DNA from: Lama guanicoe
Lineage: Eukaryota
Direction: 5' to 3'
DNA length: 64,000 nucleotides
NCBI GenBank assembly: GCA_013239625.1
Contig: MU053559.1
Location: forward strand, 868,001-932,000
Under the pieces are notes generated by a model. That model was given only the letters and a program-made list of their open reading frames with translations. It did not search any database and had not been told where the DNA came from. A program made the position numbers and the translations under genes. The stretch's first letter is position 1; each line of letters starts with the position of its first letter. Positions 1,018-58,898 of this stretch are shown piece after piece.

Positions 1018-4000
1018 TCAGTTGTCCACTTTGGAGCGCAGGTCGCTGGTGAGTGGGTCATGCTGGATGGTCTGGTGAAGCATCAGGGCCAGCAGCCCTG
1101 CCCGATTCATCATGGCTGTGCGCACCTTCTGCTCCAGCCCCATCAGCTCTTCCAGCTTGTGCAGCTGTGAGCGGGTGAGTGTGAGAGGGGGCTTCTAGAC
1201 CCAATCCCGCCCCTCAGCCCCACTCAGCCTCATAGCCTACCGTGCGCACACGCTCTAGGTCCACCTCGGCACGTCTCAGCTTCTCCCAGCAGTAATGGAG
1301 GCTGCACAGGTGTTTGGGGAGGCGACAGAAATCACCAGTGGACTCAAAGACATTTTGCATTAGTGGGCAACCACACACCTCATCCTCAGGTACCTGCGGG
1401 CAAGAATGAAGGATGATGGAGGAGGGTGGCAATGGAGGGTGAAAAGGCAGGCAAGATGAGAGGAAGAAGGGAAAGGAGGGCAGTCTGGCATGTAGGAGAG
1501 GAATGGGGAGGGACCTGGCAGGGGGGATGAGAGGAACTCAGTGATTAAGTAAAGGAGAGGGGGCAAAACGGGGGTGATCAAGCACGAAGGATGGAAGAAG
1601 AAGTTAAGCAGGGATGTAGGAATGGAGGTGATCCAGCAGGAAGGGCAGAAGAACAGAAAGAGGTCAAAGAGGAAGGAGAAGAAGGATGGAGGGGAGGTCT
1701 GACAGGGAGAATTAGATGAATAGGGACTGGTAAGACACTGGAGGAGGCGAGGGATGAAATTGGAGGGTGGGAGGTACAGGGACTGATTAAACATGGAGGG
1801 AGAAGGGATTAAGGAGATGATAGGCAGGGAGAAGGTGATTGGGGCAGTGAGGCAGGGAGAATAGGAATGGAGGGAAGTCAGAAAAAGAGAAGAGAGGAAT
1901 TGAGGGTGGCCATGCAGGGAGGAGGGGAGGAAGGTGGGGTGGTCAGGCAGGGGCTGGGAAAAGAACAGAGGATGGGCAAGCGAGGAGATGGGAACAAGAG
2001 GGAATGGTTATGAAGAAGGGAGCAGAGGAATGGAGGCTGGTCAGGCGGAGACAGAGAGAAATGGGGGGCGGGCGGCTCAGGCAAGGAGGTTATGAATAAA
2101 TAAATAGCAGCCAGGCAGAGAGGAAAGTAAGGCTGGAAGGTGACTTGGCCATGAGGAAAGGGGAGTATAGGGTGGTTAGGAAGGGAGGAGGGGACACAGC
2201 GGGGTTGGTCAGGAGGTCTGAAGGCATTCAGGCAGATGGAAGAAGGGATGGAGGCAATCAAGTACGGAGGACAAGAGGAAGAGGGTGGCCAGGTAGGGAG
2301 GAAGGGAGGAAGGGAGGTTGATGAGGTTGAGAAAGAAAAGGCTCACCTTGGGGTCCTTTGAGTGCTCAGGGCATAGCACCTGGAGCCGCTTACAGTATCT
2401 CTTACTTTGTGGGTTGTAAACATCACAGAAGAGCCTTGTGGCTCTAGGGAGAGGGTCAAAGTGAGAAACTAAGGGTCAGGAGGAGGGTGATCCCACCCTG
2501 TACCCTGCTGACACTTTGTCCCCAACGTCACCCATACCCTGCCCCTAACCCACCTACCTCTGTCTCAGAGCCCACCCACATCCTGCCCCTGATCTTGCCC
2601 ACCCTGCTCCCGCCCCTGCCCACATCATGCCTTTGACCCTGAGTAGCACCCACACTCACCCTTCAATGCAAGTGGGGTACAAGGATCCAAAGGTCGACTT
2701 GCACTCATACTGGGGAAAGAGAGTAGAAATGGGAGGAACTGTGGACATAGACCAAATGCCCTCCCATGACAGAGCCCCAAACAACCCATTTGTCCCCTGT
2801 GGACCCTATGCTGTCTGCCCAGTTAATGCCCCTGCCACCAGTAGCTGATGCCCAAATCTTGGCCCTTATACTGGGGATGGAAGAAAAGCACAAATGGGTA
2901 GAGCCATGGGTGTGTGTTGTATTCTTATCTACAACAAACGCCCAGGTACCAAACCTGCCCCCGCTCCCCAGGGACTCCACCCAGCCAAAAACACCCTTGC
3001 CCCATCTGCTCCCAGCCAATGCCCCAACCTTGACAAAGCAGCGCTCCATGTGGTGCAGGGCAACATGCACACTGATGGCTTGCCCGCAGGAGACACAGAA
3101 GATCTGCAGGTCGACACTGTTCCTGCCAGGTTTGTTGCTCTGCATAGGACAACAGAGGGGACAGCGAAGCAGTGCAGAGTGGGGATGGCAAGGCAAGATA
3201 CCAGGCACCTTTCGGCTCCACCCCACCCATTCCCACTCACCTCTTCATCTTCGCACACAGCCTGCTGCTTGCCACGCAGAATGATGGCCTCAAGTTCGCT
3301 GAAATGGCACTCTAACTCCTTCAGGCGAGTGTGGGTGTCCTGCTGTTCACGGTGGATGCGCTCGAGCATTTTCTTGCCAAGCTCCTCAGCAATGCAGGGG
3401 CTCTTCTGCCACTGCTGGATGCTCTTGGGCAGGATCTCATAGATGCGGCTGGAAGGGGGGACAACAAGAAATGGGTATGTGGGGGCATTCAAAGAAGAAG
3501 AAATGGATGTGTGACCAAATAGTGAAGATTTAGGCTAATGAATGGTAGATGAGTGATTGTTGGTGAGTGAGTGATTAAATGGTGGACGGTTGCCTGGATA
3601 GGTAGATAGCTGAGTGAGTAATGATGACTGAGTGGGTTGGTGGGTGGAACGTGGATAGGTGGTTCAGCAGGTAGGTGGATGTAAGAATGGACAGATCGGT
3701 GGGTGGAGGGATAAATGATAGGAGGATACTTGGGTATAGGAGGGTGGATGGACCTACCCTCCACACCCTGTTCCTTAATCCCAGTGCACTCACTCAGCTG
3801 CCAGCTTCATGCCACAGTCATTCGAGCAGTACTTGGAGCCTGGCCGGGTGGGAAACACACAGCCGGGTCCCAGGCACTGCCGCAGCGAGGCTGAGTCGTT
3901 GACTTTTGACTGCTCTGGGTCTTCACACTCTCCCTTGAGCTTCTGCTTCTGGTTCTTCTCCTTCTGTGGGACACAAGTGGTCAAGGCCAGGACAGGGGAG

Positions 4001-4131
4001 TCAATGTCAGCCCCCTGACCCTGTACTCCTGTCCTGCATCCCGCCCCCAACCTCTGCCTCCATGCCCCCCACTCCACCATTTCTGTCACCTTCCACTCCA
4101 CTTTTCTCTTCAAATTCTCCATTTTCTTCAT
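1018..4131 (-). CDS. CXXC1/CFP1-like paralog, N-terminally truncated 325-aa ORF (position matches human CXXC1P1); coding status unproven
   Basis: Minus-strand exons 4131-4090 (MKKMENLKRKVEWK), 3963-3794 (..QCLGPGCVFPTRPGSKYCSNDCGMKLAA), 3448-3241 (RIYEILPKSIQQWQKSPCIAEE..), 3139-3029 (..DLQIFCVSCG..HMERCFVK), 2709-2660 (YECKSTFGSLYPTCIEG), 2443-2347 (ATRLFCDVYNPQSKRYCKRLQVLCPEHSKDPK), 1393-1241 (VPEDEVCGCP..HYCWEKLRRAEVDLERVRT), 1164-1018 (..NRAGLLALMLHQTIQHDPLTSDLRSKVDN*). All 7 introns are GT-AG with compatible phases and there is no internal stop. Peptides match the C-terminal half of CXXC1 as I recall it. The start codon is inferred. Confidence 0.75.
1396..2340. repeat. GA-rich polypurine/polypyrimidine low-complexity intron
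   Basis: The + strand is almost entirely G/A runs (ggag, gaag, aggg) over ~950 bp. Confidence 0.75.
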
Positions 4132-4588
4132 ATCCACTGCTTGGTTCTGCAGTCAGAATCTAAGAACCGGAACCCTTCAATGTTATTCATCCAGGGTTGT
4201 AGGCCAGGAAAAAGCTGATGTCTCTGCAACCTGTTTCTTAAGGGATCTTTGGGCCCTCCCTGCCTCCTCTCTCCTCATTGCTGACCCTCCCTGTCTTCAC
4301 TGTCCCCATCCTTCTACCCAGGGGCCCTGCCAGACACTTATCAGGCTTTGATTGTCAAAAGTCTCTTATGCAAAACTCCTGGTATAAGTTTCAGTCCTGA
4401 GGCAGGTCCTTTTCAGACAACAACTGGTGTGGAGCTGTTGTCTGAGGTGCTTCCTTTACTGCCAGTGGCATCACCACCACCTGGTACTCCTAGGACAGCC
4501 CAGACTTCTGCAGTTGAGGCAGCTGTGACTGAGTGGGCAGCTGCCAGTGGGACCATGGCAAAGTTTCCGATGGTGTTACAGGTAAGAG
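4132..4588 (-). pseudogene. Decayed upstream exons of the CXXC1-like gene (acidic/central region)
   Basis: 4588-4342 reads LLPVTPSETLP..LS*EYQ..VKEAP..LSEKDLPQD*NLYQEFC, homologous to CXXC1 LSPVTPSESLP..VKEPP..LSDEDLPLDPDLYQDFC. It has stops at 4492-4490 and 4393-4391, a frameshift near its end and the donor ATAAGT. The next exon (PWMNNIEGFRFLDS, from ~4196) has acceptor CAA instead of CAG and a 1-nt frameshift at ~4152. Confidence 0.8.
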
Positions 4589-5119
4589 CTGAAGGGCAGA
4601 CTCTCGCACCGGCTCCACTCCCCCATCCATCCTGTGTCCTGGATCCACCAGAGACCAGGGATTACAAAAAGGGTTTCTGTGCTGATGGGAGGAGGGCTCT
4701 GGGTCAGCACTAAGCGGGTGGGGAGGGGCTCATCTTGCCCCAGCACTCCTGGCCTCACTCTCTGGCCACTGTGGCTGGGGCCCACAGCATCGGCCTGGAT
4801 ACACCTGGGAATGACTGGCACCACCTGGCCCTGCTTGCCCACCTTATTCAGGCACACTTGGCTAGTCTATCTGGCTCCACCTTGCCCACTCAAATGCATA
4901 AGGCCCTGCCTATCCACCCAGAAAAACTAGACTTTACCTCCTTACACTTGCACGGCTCAGCCTGCCTTGCTCACCCTCCAGGACACACCTGCTACCCTGC
5001 TTGCCCTGCACAGTGGACCCTGACAAGCCCCCTCTGCCCAGCCCGCCAGAACACTCATGGCCCCGCCCCTAGACACGTTCTGCCTATCTTGTTGCCCCGC
5101 CCCATAGGCCTAGTCTCTC

Positions 5120-5400
5120 CAGGCTCCACGTGCCCGACTCTGCCCTCTTGGACACTCTCTGTCTCGCCTTAAGGCTCCCAGCGCTAAGTGCCCCATACGC
5201 TGCACCAGGGCAAACCCAGCCCTGCCCTGTGCCAGGCCCTGCCCCCTTCCCACACTCTCTCAGCTTCATATGCCCCGCCCCACTTCCTGCACATGCGCTG
5301 TTCTGGTTCTGCCTTACCTCCCACGTGATGAGCCAGGCCAGCACCACCACGTACGTGCACACGCCCTGCGCCCACCACATGCACACACCACGCGGTGCCC
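5120..5400. promoter_or_regulatory. CpG-enriched candidate promoter/regulatory patch upstream of the CXXC1-like gene
   Basis: E-boxes CACGTG at 5127-5132 and 5322-5327, GC box at 5273-5280, ETS-like CACTTCCTG at 5281-5289, NRF1-like TGCACATGCGC at 5288-5298. Confidence 0.4.
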
Positions 5401-36840: not shown

Positions 36841-37819
36841 AAACGTTTTTTAAAGTAAAAAATGTGGGGGTTTTGGTGAAATGTAAGTTAATAGACTTGC
36901 ACAGACCCATATCCAGCTCATCAGAACTCTGTGTTCTCCATGTATAAAGGTAATAAATGTAACATCCCTTTTCACAGGAAAATGGTATAGATTAACTCGG
37001 TAATATGTGTCTAACCACCTAGTGTGTGTTTCAATTACACTAAACGTCATTTTAACTATATGTAACTTGAGAAAATTTACTTTTAAAATTCTTAATATTT
37101 CCTTTGCAATCATCTTGTTCTAAGGGCAAAGAAAAGCCTGGCTTGCTTAGGTATTAAGCATTTGAAACCAAACTTGCTTTTTAGACAGTAAGCCCACAAA
37201 TTATCTGGGAAGACTTCCCTGATAGGGATGGGTGCTCTAGGCCCTGCAGGCAGGAATAGCATTTGGGGAATCAAGCATTAGGGTTCTCCTTCAGGATCAA
37301 GCCCGGACTTGCTGGGTTAGATGCTGTCATTTGAAAACCTAACACGGGAAATAAATCCATTCAATAATTTGAGCACATAAAAATAAAGTAGTAAAAAGTT
37401 CACACATTTAAACAAAAACATAGGACCTATTTTCAACTACAAGATAACCTATCTTGGGCAGAGGACTTCAGCGACACTCCATTTGACGTCCCCATTTAAT
37501 GAAGTGATTAGACATAGTGCGTTGTCCATCTCTGCTTGAACTCCAGTTATGGGTTTGGGGCCACAGAGCGGGAGTCATCAAAGGTGTATTTCAGAAAATT
37601 GGTCTCCGTTTAAAAACTTTTTTTAAATGTTCACATTCATTCCAATTTTCGGGAGTCAAACCGAAACCTCCCTGTGAAAAATTAAAATCCAGGGCGGTAG
37701 CTCGCAGGGATATACTTTCCTTTTTACAGACCAAACCCATAATCGATTTTTTTGCACATCTGCTTCCGAAGCTCTGACTTTTCAATGCTAAAAGCTTTAC
37801 TCTCTGTCTACCTCCACCT

Positions 37820-38680
37820 GTGCGTCCCGCCTACCCCAGAACCCGCCAAATCCCATCAAACCCCACCCCCACCAGCCACGCACGGTCCCCATAGCCTCGC
37901 GCTCCCGGTTCCCACCGACTGCAGCCTCCGGTAATTTCATCGGATTCGGTAAAACCCCGCCCTTCTCTTCTCTCCGGCGTTTTCTTCCGTTCAGGCCCGC
38001 CCCTCCCCACCTGGTTATTTGGTTGGCCAGCGCCCTCGTCGTACGTCATTTACCCGCGCCACCCGGAAGCTGCGGTTCTTACCAACCGTTCTTTTTGCCG
38101 GCGGCTCTCAGGTAACGGCCGCATTTGGGCGTCCCTGGGTGACGGAGTTCCAGAGTTGGGAGGGGCAGAAGGCGGAACCCCCAGCCTGAGCCGGATGATC
38201 CCACTCACAACGTTGAGAGGGTGCAGATGTACTGTGCTTGAGACCATACTGAGTGGTCAACGTGGTCTTTCCCTTCCCCATTCCTCAGGAGCCCATCATG
38301 GCGACGCCCCCTAAACGGCGGGCGGTGGAGGCCACGGGGGAGAAAGTGCTGCGCTACGAGGCTTTCATCTGCGACGTGCTGCAGCGGGACCTGAAGTGAG
38401 TGACAGAACAGGGGGCGGGGCGCGTGGAGCGGTCCACGTGGTGAGCGGGGCTTTCGAAGTCAGGGCGTAGCCTTCTGATTGGCGGGCGAGGCTTTCGAAG
38501 GCCAGCCCCGTGCGCCATTCGAGTAGGAAGGAGGGGCGATATCCGGGACGGGGGAGGGAGAAACATGGCGGTCTTAGTCCAGAATGTGTCCGCGCATGCG
38601 CGGCCTCGGATGGCGCTTAAAGGTTAAGATCTAGAGTGCCAAAGCCGGAGTTCTCAGGTTCGAATCCCGGCTTGGCTATT
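37820..38680 (+). promoter_or_regulatory. UXT: UXT CpG-island promoter and non-coding exon 1
   Basis: CpG-rich; GC box at ~37996, TACGTCA at 38042-38048, ETS CCGGAAG at 38063-38069, donor CAG|GTAACG after 38111, acceptor before 38289, YY1-like AAACATGGCG at 38561-38570, NRF1 GCGCATGCGC at 38592-38601. Confidence 0.8.
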
Positions 38681-41600
38681 TCGCTTTCCGTGTGAACATG
38701 TACCTCGTTTCCACTTTCTGTGCCTCAGTTTCCTCATGTGTGAAATGGGGAAGTTAATTGAACCTTCATGCGCTGGCTTTGAGTTTTCAATGGGTTCAGT
38801 CCTTGTAAATGATTTAACTTGGATGCTAGAGGCTCAACGAGTATGAAAAATTATTATTACTATCATTATTAATCTGAGCATGAAGTACAGTGTTGAGGAC
38901 TAGGATTATGAGCATCCTAAAAAGGATGGAGGATTTTTCTACGGTAAGAACGGGATATTCCGGCTGAAGGGAGGCATTGGGAATAGAGTGTAATAAGAAG
39001 ACTAATAAATAATAGCTATAACATATATAGAGCTTCCTATTTGGCAGGCCCTATTCTAAGTACTTTATAGTTAACTCTCATTTAATCCTTCTCATGACTC
39101 TATGAGGTAATACTTGTCATCCCTATTTTATAGATGGGGAAATTGAGTTCCAAAGAGGTCACTCACTTGCCAAAGTCACACAGCTAGTAAAAAGGAAAGC
39201 CTGGATTCAAACCGAAGCAGTCTGACCCAGAGTCCAAATCTTGACTTCTGCACAAAAACACCTCTTAGGGCATGGTGACATGAGAGTCTCAGAGGGTCAC
39301 GATATGAGGTATTCCAAGAGGGCCAGGGCTTCCTCTTGGTCACCATTTTACTCTTGTCCCATCATGTCCCATCAGAAAGGTGCTGGACCATCGTGACAAG
39401 GTATATGAGCAGCTGGCCAAATACCTTCAACTGAGAAATGTCATTGAGCGACTCCAGGTAAAGATGCCAGGGTTAGGTACCTTCTTTTTGTGGGCAAAGG
39501 GTGGGGGGAGAGGGAAATACCCCAGCCCCAAACCTGTCACCTGATTAAAAGTTGACCACTGACCCCTACCTCTTTTTCCCTGGCCCCACAGGAAACTAAT
39601 CACTCGGAGTTATATATGCAGGTGGATTTGGGCTGTAACTTCTTCGTTGACACAGTGGTGTGAGTGTCTGCCTGCCCCTCTGAGCCCACAGGGTTCAGCT
39701 TCCTCCTTCATTCAACAAATATTTTTTGAGTATTTGCTACATACCAGACACTGCTAGGGGCTGGAGATGTGACAGTAAATACAAAATAGGACAAAATCCC
39801 TGCCCTCCCAGGGCTTTAATTTGGGGAAGGCGGGGGGTGTGTGTGTGTAAAAAAAAAGCCTTAAATAAACTGTGTGTGGTATGCTAAACAGTGATGAGGA
39901 CTCCCCCACTTCCTCTAACCACTGTTTCCTCAGCCCAGACACTTCACGAATCTACGTGGCCCTTGGATATGGTTTTTTCCTGGAGTTGACACTGGCAGAA
40001 GCGCTCAAGTTCATTGATCGTAAGAGCAGTCTCCTCACAGAGTAAGTCCTTTCCATGAGGATAGTATCTAAAAACACCGCCATTTGCAACACCTTTCTTC
40101 CCCCCCCTGGCTGCCTGCCATGATACATACTTAGGGACCCACCTCCCCTCCCCCTCAGAGCTCGGACTGAGGAAAGTGGGGATGCAAAGCTCAGCCTCAG
40201 GTGTAGCACCTAACAAGCACTCAATAAATCGTCTCTGTATTGGTCACTCACACAAAACTTTATCGGGCATCTGCTGTAGGCTCTGTGCTTGGTGGTGAGG
40301 AAGCAGCAGTGAACAGGACAGAAGGGTTTCTTGAAGGGTTGCATTCTAGAAGGACTGTAACTGTTACACATCAGCACAATTTTGACCAGATCCTGGAGGT
40401 CTGTCTCAGAATCATTAACAATAAAACCAGTTACCTCTGACTTTACCTCCTGCTAATTTTCCTGCTCGTTCACTGTGCTCTGACCACGCTGACCTTCACA
40501 GGCTTCTTTAAACACCCTCAGGATGCTCCCACCTCAGGGCAATTGCGGTGGCTGTTCTCTTTGCCTACAGCACTCTTTCCCCAGGTACCTGCATGGCTTC
40601 CTTTCTCCTTATTCAAATTTAAGTCTTGATTAAATGTTACTTCCTCAACAAGGCTCTCGGTGACAACTTTAAAATTGCAACCCCTGACACCCCTGACTCC
40701 CCTCCCTTGTTCTGTTTTTTTATTTTTTTAACTCCGAGCACTTATGACCTCCTAATACTTACTGGGTAATTTCCTTACTGTGTAATGTTCATTGCCTCCT
40801 CCCACTAGGATATAAGCTTTGCAGAAGGAGGGATTTTGTCTATATCCCAAGTCACTAGAATAGCACGTAGCACATATTAGGCACTCTGTTGAGTGAATTG
40901 AAAACTGTTTGCTGGAAATCGATTAAAGTGGGGATTGAAGCAGATCTCTGGTAGTGGTGGTGAGGGAGGTACCATGGGGAGAAAAGATAGGCTCCGGTTG
41001 AGTTGAAGTTTCCATGTAGAGAAGGGGAATTGGGAGTGCCAGTGAGAGGTCGGAACTGTGGCTCAGGATGGCCTCCCAGAGGAACTGACACTTGGGTCAC
41101 TTGGTTGAGCGAACAAGCTGTGGGGCTATCTGGGGAAGAGCATTCCTGACTAGGGGACCAGTGGGCCTGCCACATTAGAGGAACTGCCCTAGAATGGTGA
41201 ACATTCACTCAACCCAGATGGAGTGAATGAGGTAATGCCAAGTAGTGTACTTAGATTAACAACATTTCACGTGCGACTACCACTGATCTAAAGTTCCTTT
41301 GAGGTAATGTTTCTCTATTCCTACATTCATTTCTTCCAGAGTTGCCTCTCTTAGATTTCAATAATCCTCCCCTTTTCAAACCTTTTCAGGCTTTCAGTGT
41401 TCATAGACCCAAATGAGTCTCAGACCGGCCGAGATTTCTAAATCTCAGTGATTAGACCAGTTGGTGAACAGTTTGGTCAAGGGGCCTGCTCTCCTGGGCC
41501 AACGCAGTTCTGAACTGGTGGCTATTTAGACTAAGTCCATTTTTTTAGAACAAAGCTTTCCTTGTTATGTCACAGGATTCCTGTGCCTTTCAGATAGATT

Positions 41601-53210: not shown

Positions 53211-53484
53211 GTCTGCCCTCTGGCCCCCAGAGGTTCACACTTGTCTTACAGGCAGAATATATTCACACTATCCTAACATCTCCAAAAGTCTCATCCCATT
53301 GCAGGGGTCATCCAAAGCCAGACTGAGGAGCTTAGAATTTAGTCTGAGGGTGTTCATGGAATGATGGTGGGAGCTGAGAACAGAGGTGGAGGCAAGAAAG
53401 GAATCCTCCTCCTGCCGACCTCTCCCCCTTCCTGTATCCACAGCCTCTCAGCTCCGAGCTGTCTGCCTTCCAGGTACCCCTGGG

Positions 53485-53493
53485 ATGGCGTGA
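53485..53493 (+). promoter_or_regulatory. ELK1: Minimal uORF (ATG GCG TGA) 14 nt upstream of the ELK1 start
   Basis: gggATGGCGTGAgcgctcccccagcgATGgac; the exon acceptor is before 53474. Confidence 0.85.
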
Positions 53494-53507
53494 GCGCTCC
53501 CCCAGCG

Positions 53508-56500
53508 ATGGACCCTTCTGTGACGCTGTGGCAGTTTCTGCTGCAGCTGCTGAGAGAGCAAGGCAACGGCCACATCATCTCCTGGACCTCACGGGATGGC
53601 GGTGAGTTCAAGCTGGTGGATGCCGAGGAGGTGGCCCGGCTGTGGGGGCTCCGTAAGAATAAGACCAACATGAACTATGACAAGCTCAGCCGGGCCTTGC
53701 GGTACTACTATGACAAGGTAAGGTGTCTGAGACCCGGGCTGGGAACCGCCTCCCTGCTCCACACACACACAGTTGTATCAGTTATTTTATCTTCTTGTCT
53801 TAATTGATACAGCTCTAGCTTTGAAAACAGTATTAAAATTTACCACCTCTTGCCCCATCCTCGGGTACTCTCAAACCAATGTTGGGACTCCCAGCCATTT
53901 AGCAGTTATATTTTATTTTCTTGTATTTTATTTTAGCTTTGGCTAAAACCTTCATAGCAGCATTAACGCTGACCCCTACTCACTCCACTCTCTGAGCGCC
54001 CCAGCGTCCTGCTGTCCCACCGTGCCCCGCACACCATTTCATTTTCTCACCTCATTCCTCTGGCCAGAACTTTTGAAAGCACTATTAATAATGACTCTCC
54101 CTCGTCCTGGACCAGTCCTGGGCTCCCTGCAGTTATTTCATAATCTGCTCTTATCCCAGAATAAGAATTCCAGGATATCCTTGTTCTTAGAGTCAAAGCC
54201 TCTGTGACAGTGTTACGCTAACGTTTCCTTACCTGATCCTCCAGGACCCTGAACACTTTTATCAATTCTTTTCATCTCTTGTTCCATTAGCTAACATCTC
54301 TAAAACAACAGGTATAATGCCCCCTCCACACCACATCCTCTTCTATTCACAGAGCAACCCTGGTCCAGTCCAACATTTATATCAATTATTTTATCGTATC
54401 TTCTTGTTCCTGGAGTTAAAATTGTACATTTTCCTCATCGTATCCTCTCAGACTCCCAAACCAGTGCAAGATACCCACCCCCATGTTTATACCAGTTATT
54501 TCATGTCCTTATTTCTTTACCTGAAACTCCCAAAACACTGTTTTTCTTCTTCCAGTTCTGTTGAGCTATAATTGGTGAACATTCATCATCTCGTAGAGAT
54601 ACAAAATAAAAGAAAAAGGAACAAAAAAATTCTTTCCTTGGGATGACAACTTAGGATTTCCTCTCTTAACAACTTTCATATGTAACATACAGCAGTGTTC
54701 GTTGTATTTCATGTTGTACATTACATCCCTAGTATTTATTTACTTCATAACTGGTAGTATGTACCTTTTGGCTGCCTGCATCCAGTCCCCCCACCTCCTC
54801 TCACCCCTCACTGAAACTTCTAAAACAATATTAATGAATATCCCTTTTCAGTCCTTTTCTGAGAAACAAACCCACCCTGTGACATACGTGACCAGCATTT
54901 AGATGTCTCCAGGGTGCCCTAGTGCCCCCCCTCCCAGATGCCTCTTGTTCCCCAGAACAGCCCTGGACGTGTGCTGCACACCCTTAATCATTTATAGCAC
55001 TTATTCCATTTTTATATTTTAATCTTTTAGCACAAACTGCCAAAACAGCATTAATAATGAGGCTGCCTCACTCTGTGCTCTGAGGCCACTGGAACATCCC
55101 TGAGACCCTCAGACCTATCCTGAAATACCCCAAACATGCTCTGTGACCCGCCCAAGCCAGCTTGAGACTCCCCCAATATTTATGCCATTATTTTAATGTT
55201 CTTGCTAGGTGCTCTCAGTTACTTCAGTTTCTAACTGCCTTAGCGTAAACCTCCACAGCAGTATTAAGAATGAGGCTCCACATCCTGTCCTCCCTGGTGA
55301 CCTTGCCCTGTCCCACGTCTGTGTCACCAGCTTTAAATAATCCTCTAATAATTCATACTTATTAACAATTCATCCCTCCAGTCTTCTACATTCCTTTAGT
55401 CTCTTCCAATACTTAGAGCGATGGCTTCATTTTCCTGTCTTATTGCATTAGCTAGACTCCAAAACTGGGTCCCAGCAGCCGCCCCCAAGGCCTGGCCCTG
55501 TGAGCCCACAGACACCCCTGGTTCCTGGAGCCAGGAGGAAAGCTTGCTCCCGCATCTACTGCCCTAGGCCGGCCCCAGTGTGGAGAGGAGCCAGTGGGTG
55601 TGGCTGTGTGGGGTGGGAGAATGGGACAGATGGGGATGAAGAGAGAGTGAAAGAGGGAGACGTGGAGGGGAGAACAGAGAAGAGGGAGAAGCTCGGGGAG
55701 AATACAGAGAGGAGGATCGGGGTGGGGAAGACGGGGAGAAAGTGGAGGAGAAGGGTGGAGCCCCCAAGTTGGGAGATGGGGTGAGATGTGAAACAAGCCG
55801 GGAGAAGGGAGCCTGTGGGAAGGCGGACACTGAGGTGGGACAGTGCATATGTAAGAGGACAGGAAAGGGGCACAGGGAAAGAAAGACACTGGGAGACACC
55901 CCTCTTCACCCCCTCAGCATCCACACCCTCCCTGGCCCTATCTTCTAAGACGCTTTATCCTGTTTCCCCCTTCTCAGAACATCATCCGCAAAGTGAGCGG
56001 CCAGAAGTTCGTCTACAAGTTTGTGTCCTACCCCGAGGTCGCGGGGTGCTCCACTGAGGACTGCCCACCCCAGCCTGAGGTGTCGCTCACCTCCACCGTG
56101 ACAAATGTGGGCCCTGCAGCTGTCCACACTCTCCCCGGGGACGCTGCTTCTGGGAAGCCAGGCCAACCCAAGGGTGCAGGAACAGCAGGCCCAGGCGGCT
56201 TGGCGCGCAGCAGCCGGAACGAGTACATGCGCTCAGGCCTCTATTCCACCTTCACAATCCAGTCCCTGCAGCCGCAGCCACCGCCACCATCTCATCCTCG
56301 GCCTGCCTCTGTGCTCCCCAATACCGCCCCTGCAGGAGCAGCAGTGCCCCCCTCAGGGAGCAGGAGCACCAGTCCAAGCCCCTTGGAGGCCTGCCTGGAG
56401 GCTGAGGAGGCCGGCCTGCCTCTGCAGGTAAGGACTGGCATATGGAAATTCAGTAGGAGGAGGGATGTCCAATTCCCAAATGGGGAGGGGGGCTGGGAGG

Positions 56501-58776: not shown

Positions 58777-58898
58777 NNNNNNNNNNNNNNNNNNNNNNNN
58801 NNNNNNNNNNNNNNNNNNNNNNNNNNNNNNNNNNNNNNNNNNNNNNNNNNNNNNNNNNNNNNNNNNNNNNNNNNNNNNNNNNNNNNNNNNNNNNNNNN
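58777..58898. other. Assembly gap (122 N) in the ELK1 3' UTR
   Basis: Run of N flanked by A-runs on both sides. Confidence 1.

Follow-up and report, generated by a model that had tools for sequence, protein, structure and literature searches.

CFP1, encoded by CXXC1, is the subunit that directs the SETD1 complex of proteins associated with Set1 (COMPASS) to CpG islands and to existing trimethylated lysine 4 of histone H3 (H3K4me3). Yeast Spp1 is a COMPASS subunit whose C-terminal part touches the N-SET region of Set1 and which retains a plant homeodomain (PHD) finger. A fragment of CFP1 comprising residues 361-656 is reported to bind the Setd1 complex and to restore the development of T cells when thymocytes are deficient in Cxxc1, without the DNA-binding half of the protein, and the C375A mutation abolishes the CFP1-Setd1 interaction (excerpted text of PMC4879243, which cites earlier embryonic stem-cell work). 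Human CXXC1P1 is listed beside UXT and ELK1 at Xp11.23 (PMC3467283; PMC4657880) and, in the excerpts of the literature that mention it, these two papers included, is found only as a list item. Here we analyze a 64-kb stretch of DNA from the guanaco, Lama guanicoe (contig MU053559.1, positions 868,001 to 932,000; hereafter the window), whose minus strand carries a partial copy of CXXC1. This copy is the guanaco member of a paralog family that databases name “CXXC-type zinc finger protein 1-like” (hereafter the CXXC1-like family).

In the reading that we favor, and that we consider on balance probable, the exons in the window belong to the camelid version of an old gene of placentals, a partial duplicate of CXXC1, introns included, that has been kept protein-coding and whose product likely docks on SETD1A/B without the reader domains of CFP1. 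Literature searches on a CXXC1-like paralog found no description of this gene; it is present in databases as automatic models, and as a described member of the CFP1 family with neither reader domain it seems to be new. Below we set out the structure, origin, age and constraint of the gene, weigh the possibility that the camelid copy is dying, examine the predicted docking on SETD1A, and compare the locus with the systems described above.

Gene structure and origin from CXXC1

Rebuilt from its coordinates, the coding model of the window copy comprises eight exons between 4131 and 1018 (Table 1), separated by seven introns that all run from GT to AG with consistent phases. The joined frame measures 978 nt, or 325 codons plus TGA, and contains no internal stop, as the first-pass annotation, made from the sequence alone, had proposed. 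In exon 1 the 3′ end of the ancestral first coding exon survives intact, and it ends in the donor AAG/GTGACA; a second in-frame donor (ATG/GTGGAG, final exon base 4078) lies 12 nt downstream. These donors, at 4090/4089 and 4078/4077 on the minus strand, parallel, in frame, the two isoform donors of CXXC1, which add or omit four residues (the “VMER” extension). Five of the six exons scanned match the Pfam family CpG_bind_C (PF12269), four of them above the 26.3-bit cut-off, and the matches are colinear with the profile (spans in Table 1, the last being 210-236); exons 1 and 5 are too short for such a scan.

A search of the 2.05-Gb genome with exon 3 finds exactly two places, the window locus and, at 77% identity, the parent locus, which is a complete CXXC1 with PHD, CXXC and C-terminal exons (G000:C6341, L001-L002). 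Paralog and parent have final six exons of identical size (exon 2 being five codons shorter in the paralog) and share all seven intron positions, hence the window copy is a duplicate made at the DNA level; a processed retrocopy is ruled out, since seven introns are retained at the parent’s positions. Nucleotide homology to the parent is colinear from 4292 to 1014 and protein homology reaches 4588, and the window product is ~70% identical to CFP1 over 325 residues. The two reader domains are missing, in agreement with the first-pass description: a translated search (tblastn) of the 64 kb with full-length CFP1 found no remnant of the PHD finger (PF00628), and upstream of 4588 the 64 kb has no homology to the parent, at the protein or the nucleotide level, that could represent the CXXC finger (PF02008). 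The proteins of the family carry PF12269 as their only Pfam domain, and PF02008 occurs in none of them. One PHD-like tblastn match (16562-16503, E = 5.1) contains a stop and was judged to be due to chance.

Intron 6 (1394-2346) measures 953 nt, against 328 nt in the parent, and is 79% purine on the plus strand, hence rich in pyrimidines on the transcript; the only tandem array found in it is a short one (2291-2317, period 8). On the 3′ side of the window copy no significant homology to the 3′ untranslated region of the parent was found.

Age, constraint and the broken 5′ end

Among the matches listed, proteins of the CXXC1-like family come from at least about 75 species of 10 placental orders and range from 228 to ~400 aa. 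The orders are Artiodactyla (camelids, pig, many whales and dolphins), Carnivora, Perissodactyla, Chiroptera, Eulipotyphla, Pholidota, Dermoptera, Lagomorpha, Primates (strepsirrhines, tarsier) and Pilosa (sloth). The window product shares 96% identity with the alpaca protein and 72-80% with those of other orders. Apart from a degenerate-looking Saguinus prediction, these matches include no rodent, anthropoid, afrotherian or marsupial member. A tree of 57 rows (34 of the family, i.e., 33 proteins and the window model, and 23 vertebrate CFP1) unites all 34 in a single clade (support 100/100), which lies within a group of placental CFP1 and CXXC1-like sequences (96/88) with marsupial CFP1 outside; an earlier quick tree had left out 10 partial or oddly spliced rows. 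Branching inside the clade broadly matches the mammalian orders, and the topology places the duplication on the eutherian stem, before the split between sloth and boreoeutherians. The stem branch of the clade is long (0.18 changes per site). The intact exons, first described as lying inside an apparent pseudogene, thus belong instead to an old, 5′-truncated duplicate gene that is already modeled as protein-coding in many mammals.

Selection was measured over the 325 codons by comparing the window copy with the parent in the same genome (NG86 method). Nonsynonymous divergence (dN) is 0.170 and synonymous divergence (dS) 0.884, giving a ratio (omega) of 0.19 (bootstrap 0.13-0.27), and the differences are distributed 57:49:120 over the three codon positions. 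Exon by exon, the ratio is 0.92 for exon 1, over its 14 codons, and 0.21, 0.12, 0.39, 0.22, 0.03, 0.09 and 0.37 for exons 2-8. Because CFP1 is nearly unchanged in placentals (tip branches 0-0.008), almost all of dN but about half of dS is assigned to the paralog, whose own long-term omega would be nearer 0.4. Neutral simulation from the parental coding sequence at d = 0.44 (half the observed dS) gives a mean of 9.6 stops, 0 of 5000 frames free of stops, and 43% amino-acid identity instead of the 70% observed, a result that excludes chance survival of the open frame. An unprocessed pseudogene is accordingly rejected for 4131-1018, where there is no stop or frameshift, omega is 0.19 and third positions are in excess; disabling changes occur only upstream of 4131. 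Together with the orthologs in 10 placental orders and the retained equivalent of C375, the dN/dS of 0.19 bears out the earlier proposal that selection has kept the SET1-binding, C-terminal half.

Upstream of 4131 the picture is different. The CXXC1-like proteins of orca, sloth, horse, a horseshoe bat and gray whale begin M-[KR]-R-E-E-A and continue directly into the next CXXC1 exon. In the window the corresponding ancestral ATG is at 4278-4276 on the minus strand, ~50 codons upstream of ATG 4131 and within sequence derived from a CXXC1 intron, and the start codon of the paralog looks to have been co-opted from that former intron. Two frameshifts follow this ATG, at ~4216-4209 and ~4155, and lead to a stop at 4185-4183, which makes ATG 4131 a methionine within the first coding exon of the ancestral gene; the in-frame methionine of the “..KKMEN..” stretch is conserved in many species. 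Between the remnant exon further upstream (Table 1) and the next exon both splice sites have been lost (donor GT>AT, acceptor AG>AA). The disruption of the exons immediately upstream, recognized at first pass, is therefore real, and the frame from 4131 to 1018 is open as described; the ancestral protein started ~50 codons further upstream, in a part that is broken only in camelids. The context of the ancestral ATG is also present in the parent’s intron in the same genome (L001 ~6445), with 29 of 33 bases identical.

With the ancestral N-terminal ~50 codons broken in this camelid, the product would begin either at ATG 4131 or at a candidate camelid-specific upstream exon that is used in the alpaca and camel gene models. 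The candidate exon can be joined in frame to exon 2, for a product of 332 aa, or to an acceptor at 4146, for one of 351 aa, and the second donor (4078) yields a product of 329 aa. The 325-aa form would hence be one of several possible products (325, 329, 332 and 351 aa, and 228 aa in the camel RefSeq models). Around the candidate exon, the stretch 5000-5400 has a GC content of 0.65, a CpG observed/expected ratio of 0.51 and several CCCGCCCC boxes; this GC-rich stretch may be a promoter.

It is conceivable, though in our view unlikely, that the family is a real gene elsewhere and that the camelid copy has recently been inactivated or is dying, its frame still open for want of time. Besides the frameshifts and stop after the ancestral ATG, several observations favor this account or count against a gene still at work in the guanaco. 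Recent camel RefSeq models run to 228 aa only, starting at a methionine inside exon 3, and a product begun there would be without the zinc motif of the interface predicted below. At two sites that the family conserves to at least 90%, the window copy carries private changes. No AATAAA or ATTAAA occurs in the first 1.9 kb 3′ of the stop. In simulations at d = 0.05, the time since the camelid crown, 18% of frames remain free of stops (substitutions only), so that the camelid-crown interval by itself is no proof of present-day function; similarly, the 6 amino-acid differences in 311 residues between the window product and the alpaca protein are not obviously below the neutral expectation for close relatives. 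The paralog also looks lost or decayed, and to that extent dispensable, in some lineages, given the human pseudogene and the degenerate-looking predictions in Bos mutus and Saguinus.

Against a dying copy stands the intactness of exons 2-8 not only in the window but also in the alpaca, wild camel and dromedary models, which cover two camelid lineages and their shared stem. Indels, which lie outside the simulation, would push the 18% lower. The camelid branches are no longer than those of cetaceans, pig, horse or bats: the path from the Laurasiatheria node measures 0.123 for the window copy, 0.131 for orca, 0.11 for pig and 0.115 for horse, an ordinary length for the clade that argues against relaxation in camelids. 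Finally, the conserved in-frame “..KKMEN..” ATG and the in-frame upstream exon common to the alpaca and camel models are both still usable.

Several side observations concern the distribution of the gene. The nearest AATAAA lies ~900 bases past the left edge of the window. The Bos mutus “hypothetical protein” (P0054) and the Saguinus prediction (P0029, 140 aa) look degenerate, with cysteines lost and read-through into introns, and hint that bovids and New World monkeys lost the gene independently, in addition to the human pseudogene. The orca has at least four distinct full-length proteins of 373 aa (P0004, P0167, P0174, P0175), which differ from each other by 1-8 residues and are encoded on one 132.5-Mb contig, and the common dolphin has at least two to three copies (P0172, P0177, P0180), compared with one in the genome of the window, a pattern suggesting that intact copies were recently amplified in delphinids. 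The Logan/ENA proteins P0018, P0024 and P0077-P0079 were rejected as transcripts, being read-through frames of unspliced genomic contigs. In metagenome contigs none of the 123 pattern matches of a first scan proved to be a relative, and the six loci of a second scan, at 43-57% identity, are distant CFP1 homologs of other eukaryotes.

Conserved residues and predicted docking on SETD1A

The C-terminal half of CFP1 contains 16 cysteines, and all 16 are kept in the CXXC1-like family, 15 at 100% and one at 97% (33-34 rows); as all 16 are also present in the window copy, the Cys/His motifs are retained as the first-pass annotation had stated. C44 of the model aligns with C379 of the 660-aa isoform of CFP1, i.e., C375 of the 656-aa isoform, and is conserved in 34 of 34 rows. 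Of the 325 columns, 156 reach at least 90% conservation in both the family and CFP1 and have the same residue in the two.

We predicted the complex of residues 40-328 of the camel protein P0002 (93% identical to the window product) with an N-SET+SET fragment of a SETD1A-like protein (residues 170-469 of P0242, which is 85% identical to a UniRef-named SETD1A); the run was made without the supplied alignment. The pair scored 0.63, against 0.00 for the best of three controls. Among solved complexes 51 of 78 attain the mark applied to this score, among mismatched pairs 2 of 108; in a eukaryote benchmark the figures are 39 of 65 for solved pairs that have no like older complex and 2 of 126 for unrelated pairs. 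At least 29% of contacts are shared between runs, and the pLDDT of the partner is at least 69. In the predicted interface the N-SET helices lie against the CLGPGC...YCSDDCG motif and the helix that follows it, and against the C-terminal “NRAGLLALMLH” helix. Columns conserved and identical in the family and CFP1 make up 28 of 39 at this interface and 128 of 286 elsewhere (odds ratio 3.1, Fisher p = 0.002). These results support docking of the CXXC1-like protein on the N-SET region of SETD1A, the prediction showing likeness rather than binding.

Some results pull the other way. One of the private changes of the window copy, D>N in the YCSDDCG motif, falls within the predicted interface. The single-chain AlphaFold2 model of the camel protein, built with 26 sequences of the family, is poor (pLDDT 52.7, pTM 0.22). 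Solved structures of yeast COMPASS exist, and the passing score may owe something to likeness to them. In a separate search, a profile of the family matched no chain of the Protein Data Bank (PDB) at E <= 0.01, and none at E <= 10.

The protein could also be made and conserved for a job other than SET1 binding, such as binding DNMT1 or another partner of the C-terminal half of CFP1, or a new function acquired on the stem branch. The excerpted text of PMC4879243 reports that regions of Cxxc1 between residues 169 and 493 mediate interaction with DNMT1, and the length of the stem branch, five columns fixed differently in the family and CFP1, 47 CFP1-conserved columns that vary in the family, and four extra cysteines typical of the family (in 71-85% of rows) would all suit such a change of role. 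We nevertheless judge it rather improbable, because it is the motif around the C375 equivalent and the predicted N-SET interface that are best conserved and because the complex prediction passed while every control stood at 0.00. That the locus acts as RNA only, for example as a transcribed pseudogene or an antisense regulator of its neighbors with an irrelevant open frame, is hardly credible: although CXXC1P1 appears as a list item in the excerpt of an RNA-seq differential-expression table and 5′ structure differs among the gene models, this account does not predict the third-position excess, the omega of 0.19, the zinc ligands all kept in 33-34 proteins or the open frames in so many species.

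The history that best fits a kept, SETD1-docking gene would begin with a partial, intron-containing duplication of CXXC1 on the eutherian stem, in the ELK1-UXT neighborhood (X-linked in human). The exons of the PHD and CXXC readers would either never have been present or have been lost early, a start codon would have been gained from a former intron, and moderate purifying selection would since have maintained the result as a protein-coding gene. The gene structure, homology, age and constraint and the loss of the reader domains are established by the results above. Its product would be a natural counterpart of the C-terminal fragment of CFP1, with the zinc motif and helices that hold CFP1 on SETD1A/B, and would most likely dock on the N-SET region of SETD1A/B and so enter COMPASS, or compete with CFP1, without reading CpG or H3K4me3. 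If expressed, such a protein could influence where COMPASS is targeted, and a role as competitor or in re-targeting COMPASS is plausible, and the modeled complex supports docking on SETD1A; the equivalent engineered CFP1 fragment 361-656, however, is reported to give rescue, not inhibition (excerpted text of PMC4879243).

A more specific version, which we regard as speculative and do not expect to prove correct, is a germline-expressed, X-linked “reader-less CFP1” that replaces or competes with CFP1 on SETD1A/B and so breaks the link between H3K4 trimethylation and CpG islands at certain stages, e.g., meiosis, spermiogenesis or the early embryo. Moderate-to-fast evolution, repeated losses (human, probably bovids) and the amplification in orca (at least four near-identical intact copies) hint at a biology of reproduction or genetic conflict rather than housekeeping. 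In more general terms, a reader-less paralog that keeps the SET1-docking half would be a built-in means to change at which sites SETD1 complexes are tethered, or whether they are tethered at all. The human copy is a pseudogene and no rodent copy is among the matches listed, which may explain why the gene has escaped study; open copies in pig, dog, cat, horse, rabbit, bats and whales make the proposal directly testable. The family also shows a partial duplicate turning into a gene by taking its start codon from a former intron.

Genomic neighborhood and comparison with known systems

The window copy lies ~35 kb from a UXT-like exon that is upstream of it and in head-to-head orientation, and an open frame with an Ets domain resembles ELK1 (Table 1); the names of both neighbors were inferred from their domains and the gene order. 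These Prefoldin and Ets exons, set beside the listing of CXXC1P1 next to UXT and ELK1 in the excerpted gene lists, agree with the first-pass statement that the human locus next to UXT is annotated as the pseudogene CXXC1P1, and the shared neighborhood makes CXXC1P1 most likely the ortholog of the window copy. In other species the CXXC1-like genes are mostly found on chromosome-scale contigs of 120-150 Mb, which fits an X chromosome.

Between the paralog and the UXT-like gene (6000-38000) lie ~30 kb of AT-rich sequence (GC 0.32-0.44), probably interspersed repeats, with short repeat matches to the parent region at 10446-10344. Positions 58777-58898 hold 122 N in a row, either an assembly gap or a withheld stretch.

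Table 1. Features of the window (positions in the 64-kb stretch; “parent” is CXXC1 of the same genome)
Feature	Position	Strand	Details
Exon 1	4131-4090	-	42 nt, 14 codons from internal ATG; without acceptor at its start
Exon 2	3963-3794	-	170 nt (parent 185 nt); basic stretch and CLGPGC...YCS.DCG zinc motif with the counterpart of CFP1 C375
Exon 3	3448-3241	-	208 nt (= parent size); long helix; PF12269 4-71, 55.5 bits
Exon 4	3139-3029	-	111 nt (= parent size); CVSC...H..H motif; PF12269 78-109
Exon 5	2709-2660	-	50 nt (= parent size)
Exon 6	2443-2347	-	97 nt (= parent size); PF12269 128-157; strongest constraint of all exons (dN/dS 0.03)
Exon 7	1393-1241	-	153 nt (= parent size); PF12269 158-207, 80.1 bits
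Exon 8	1164-1018	-	147 nt including TGA at 1020-1018 (= parent size); C-terminal helix within predicted SETD1A interface
Broken 5′ part of ancestral first coding exon	4132-4278	-	Two frameshifts and a stop
Remnant of CXXC1 exon for CFP1 residues 223-299	4358-4588	-	49% identical, 2 in-frame stops
Candidate camelid-specific first coding exon	5318-5380	-	21 codons, donor GAG/GTAAGG
CpG island adjoining UXT-like exon	37800-39300		Observed/expected 0.79
Prefoldin-family exon (UXT-like)	39935-40054	+	Domain match; neighbor, outside the gene
Ets-domain open frame (ELK1-like)	53343-53804	+	E = 2e-28; neighbor, outside the gene

Compared with CFP1, its parent, the paralog shares the exon-intron layout, the sizes of the final six exons, PF12269, the 16 C-terminal cysteines and both “VMER” donors. 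It lacks the PHD finger, the CXXC finger and an intact acidic region, starts from a former intron, resides in the ELK1-UXT neighborhood rather than at the CXXC1 locus, is lost from some lineages and evolves ~30 times faster (tip paths of 0.1-0.3 versus 0-0.008). The models named “CXXC-type zinc finger protein 1-like”, such as those of alpaca (P0001), camel (P0164), orca (P0004), sloth (P0006) and pig (P0232), represent the same gene, with PF12269 as the only domain, but are automatic predictions that differ at their 5′ ends (228 to ~400 aa). Human CXXC1P1 shares the UXT/ELK1 neighborhood but is an annotated pseudogene, known here by name from excerpted gene lists, whereas the window copy has an open frame of 325 codons.

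The engineered CFP1 fragment 361-656 (excerpted text of PMC4879243) has nearly the boundaries of the paralog product, which corresponds to approximately CFP1 residues 332 to 656; the fragment, however, is a laboratory construct of CFP1 itself, while the natural paralog has diverged at ~30% of its residues.

Yeast Spp1 offers the remaining comparison: its C-terminal part sits on the N-SET region of Set1, as is predicted here for the CXXC1-like protein on SETD1A, but Spp1 has a PHD finger and the CXXC1-like family does not.

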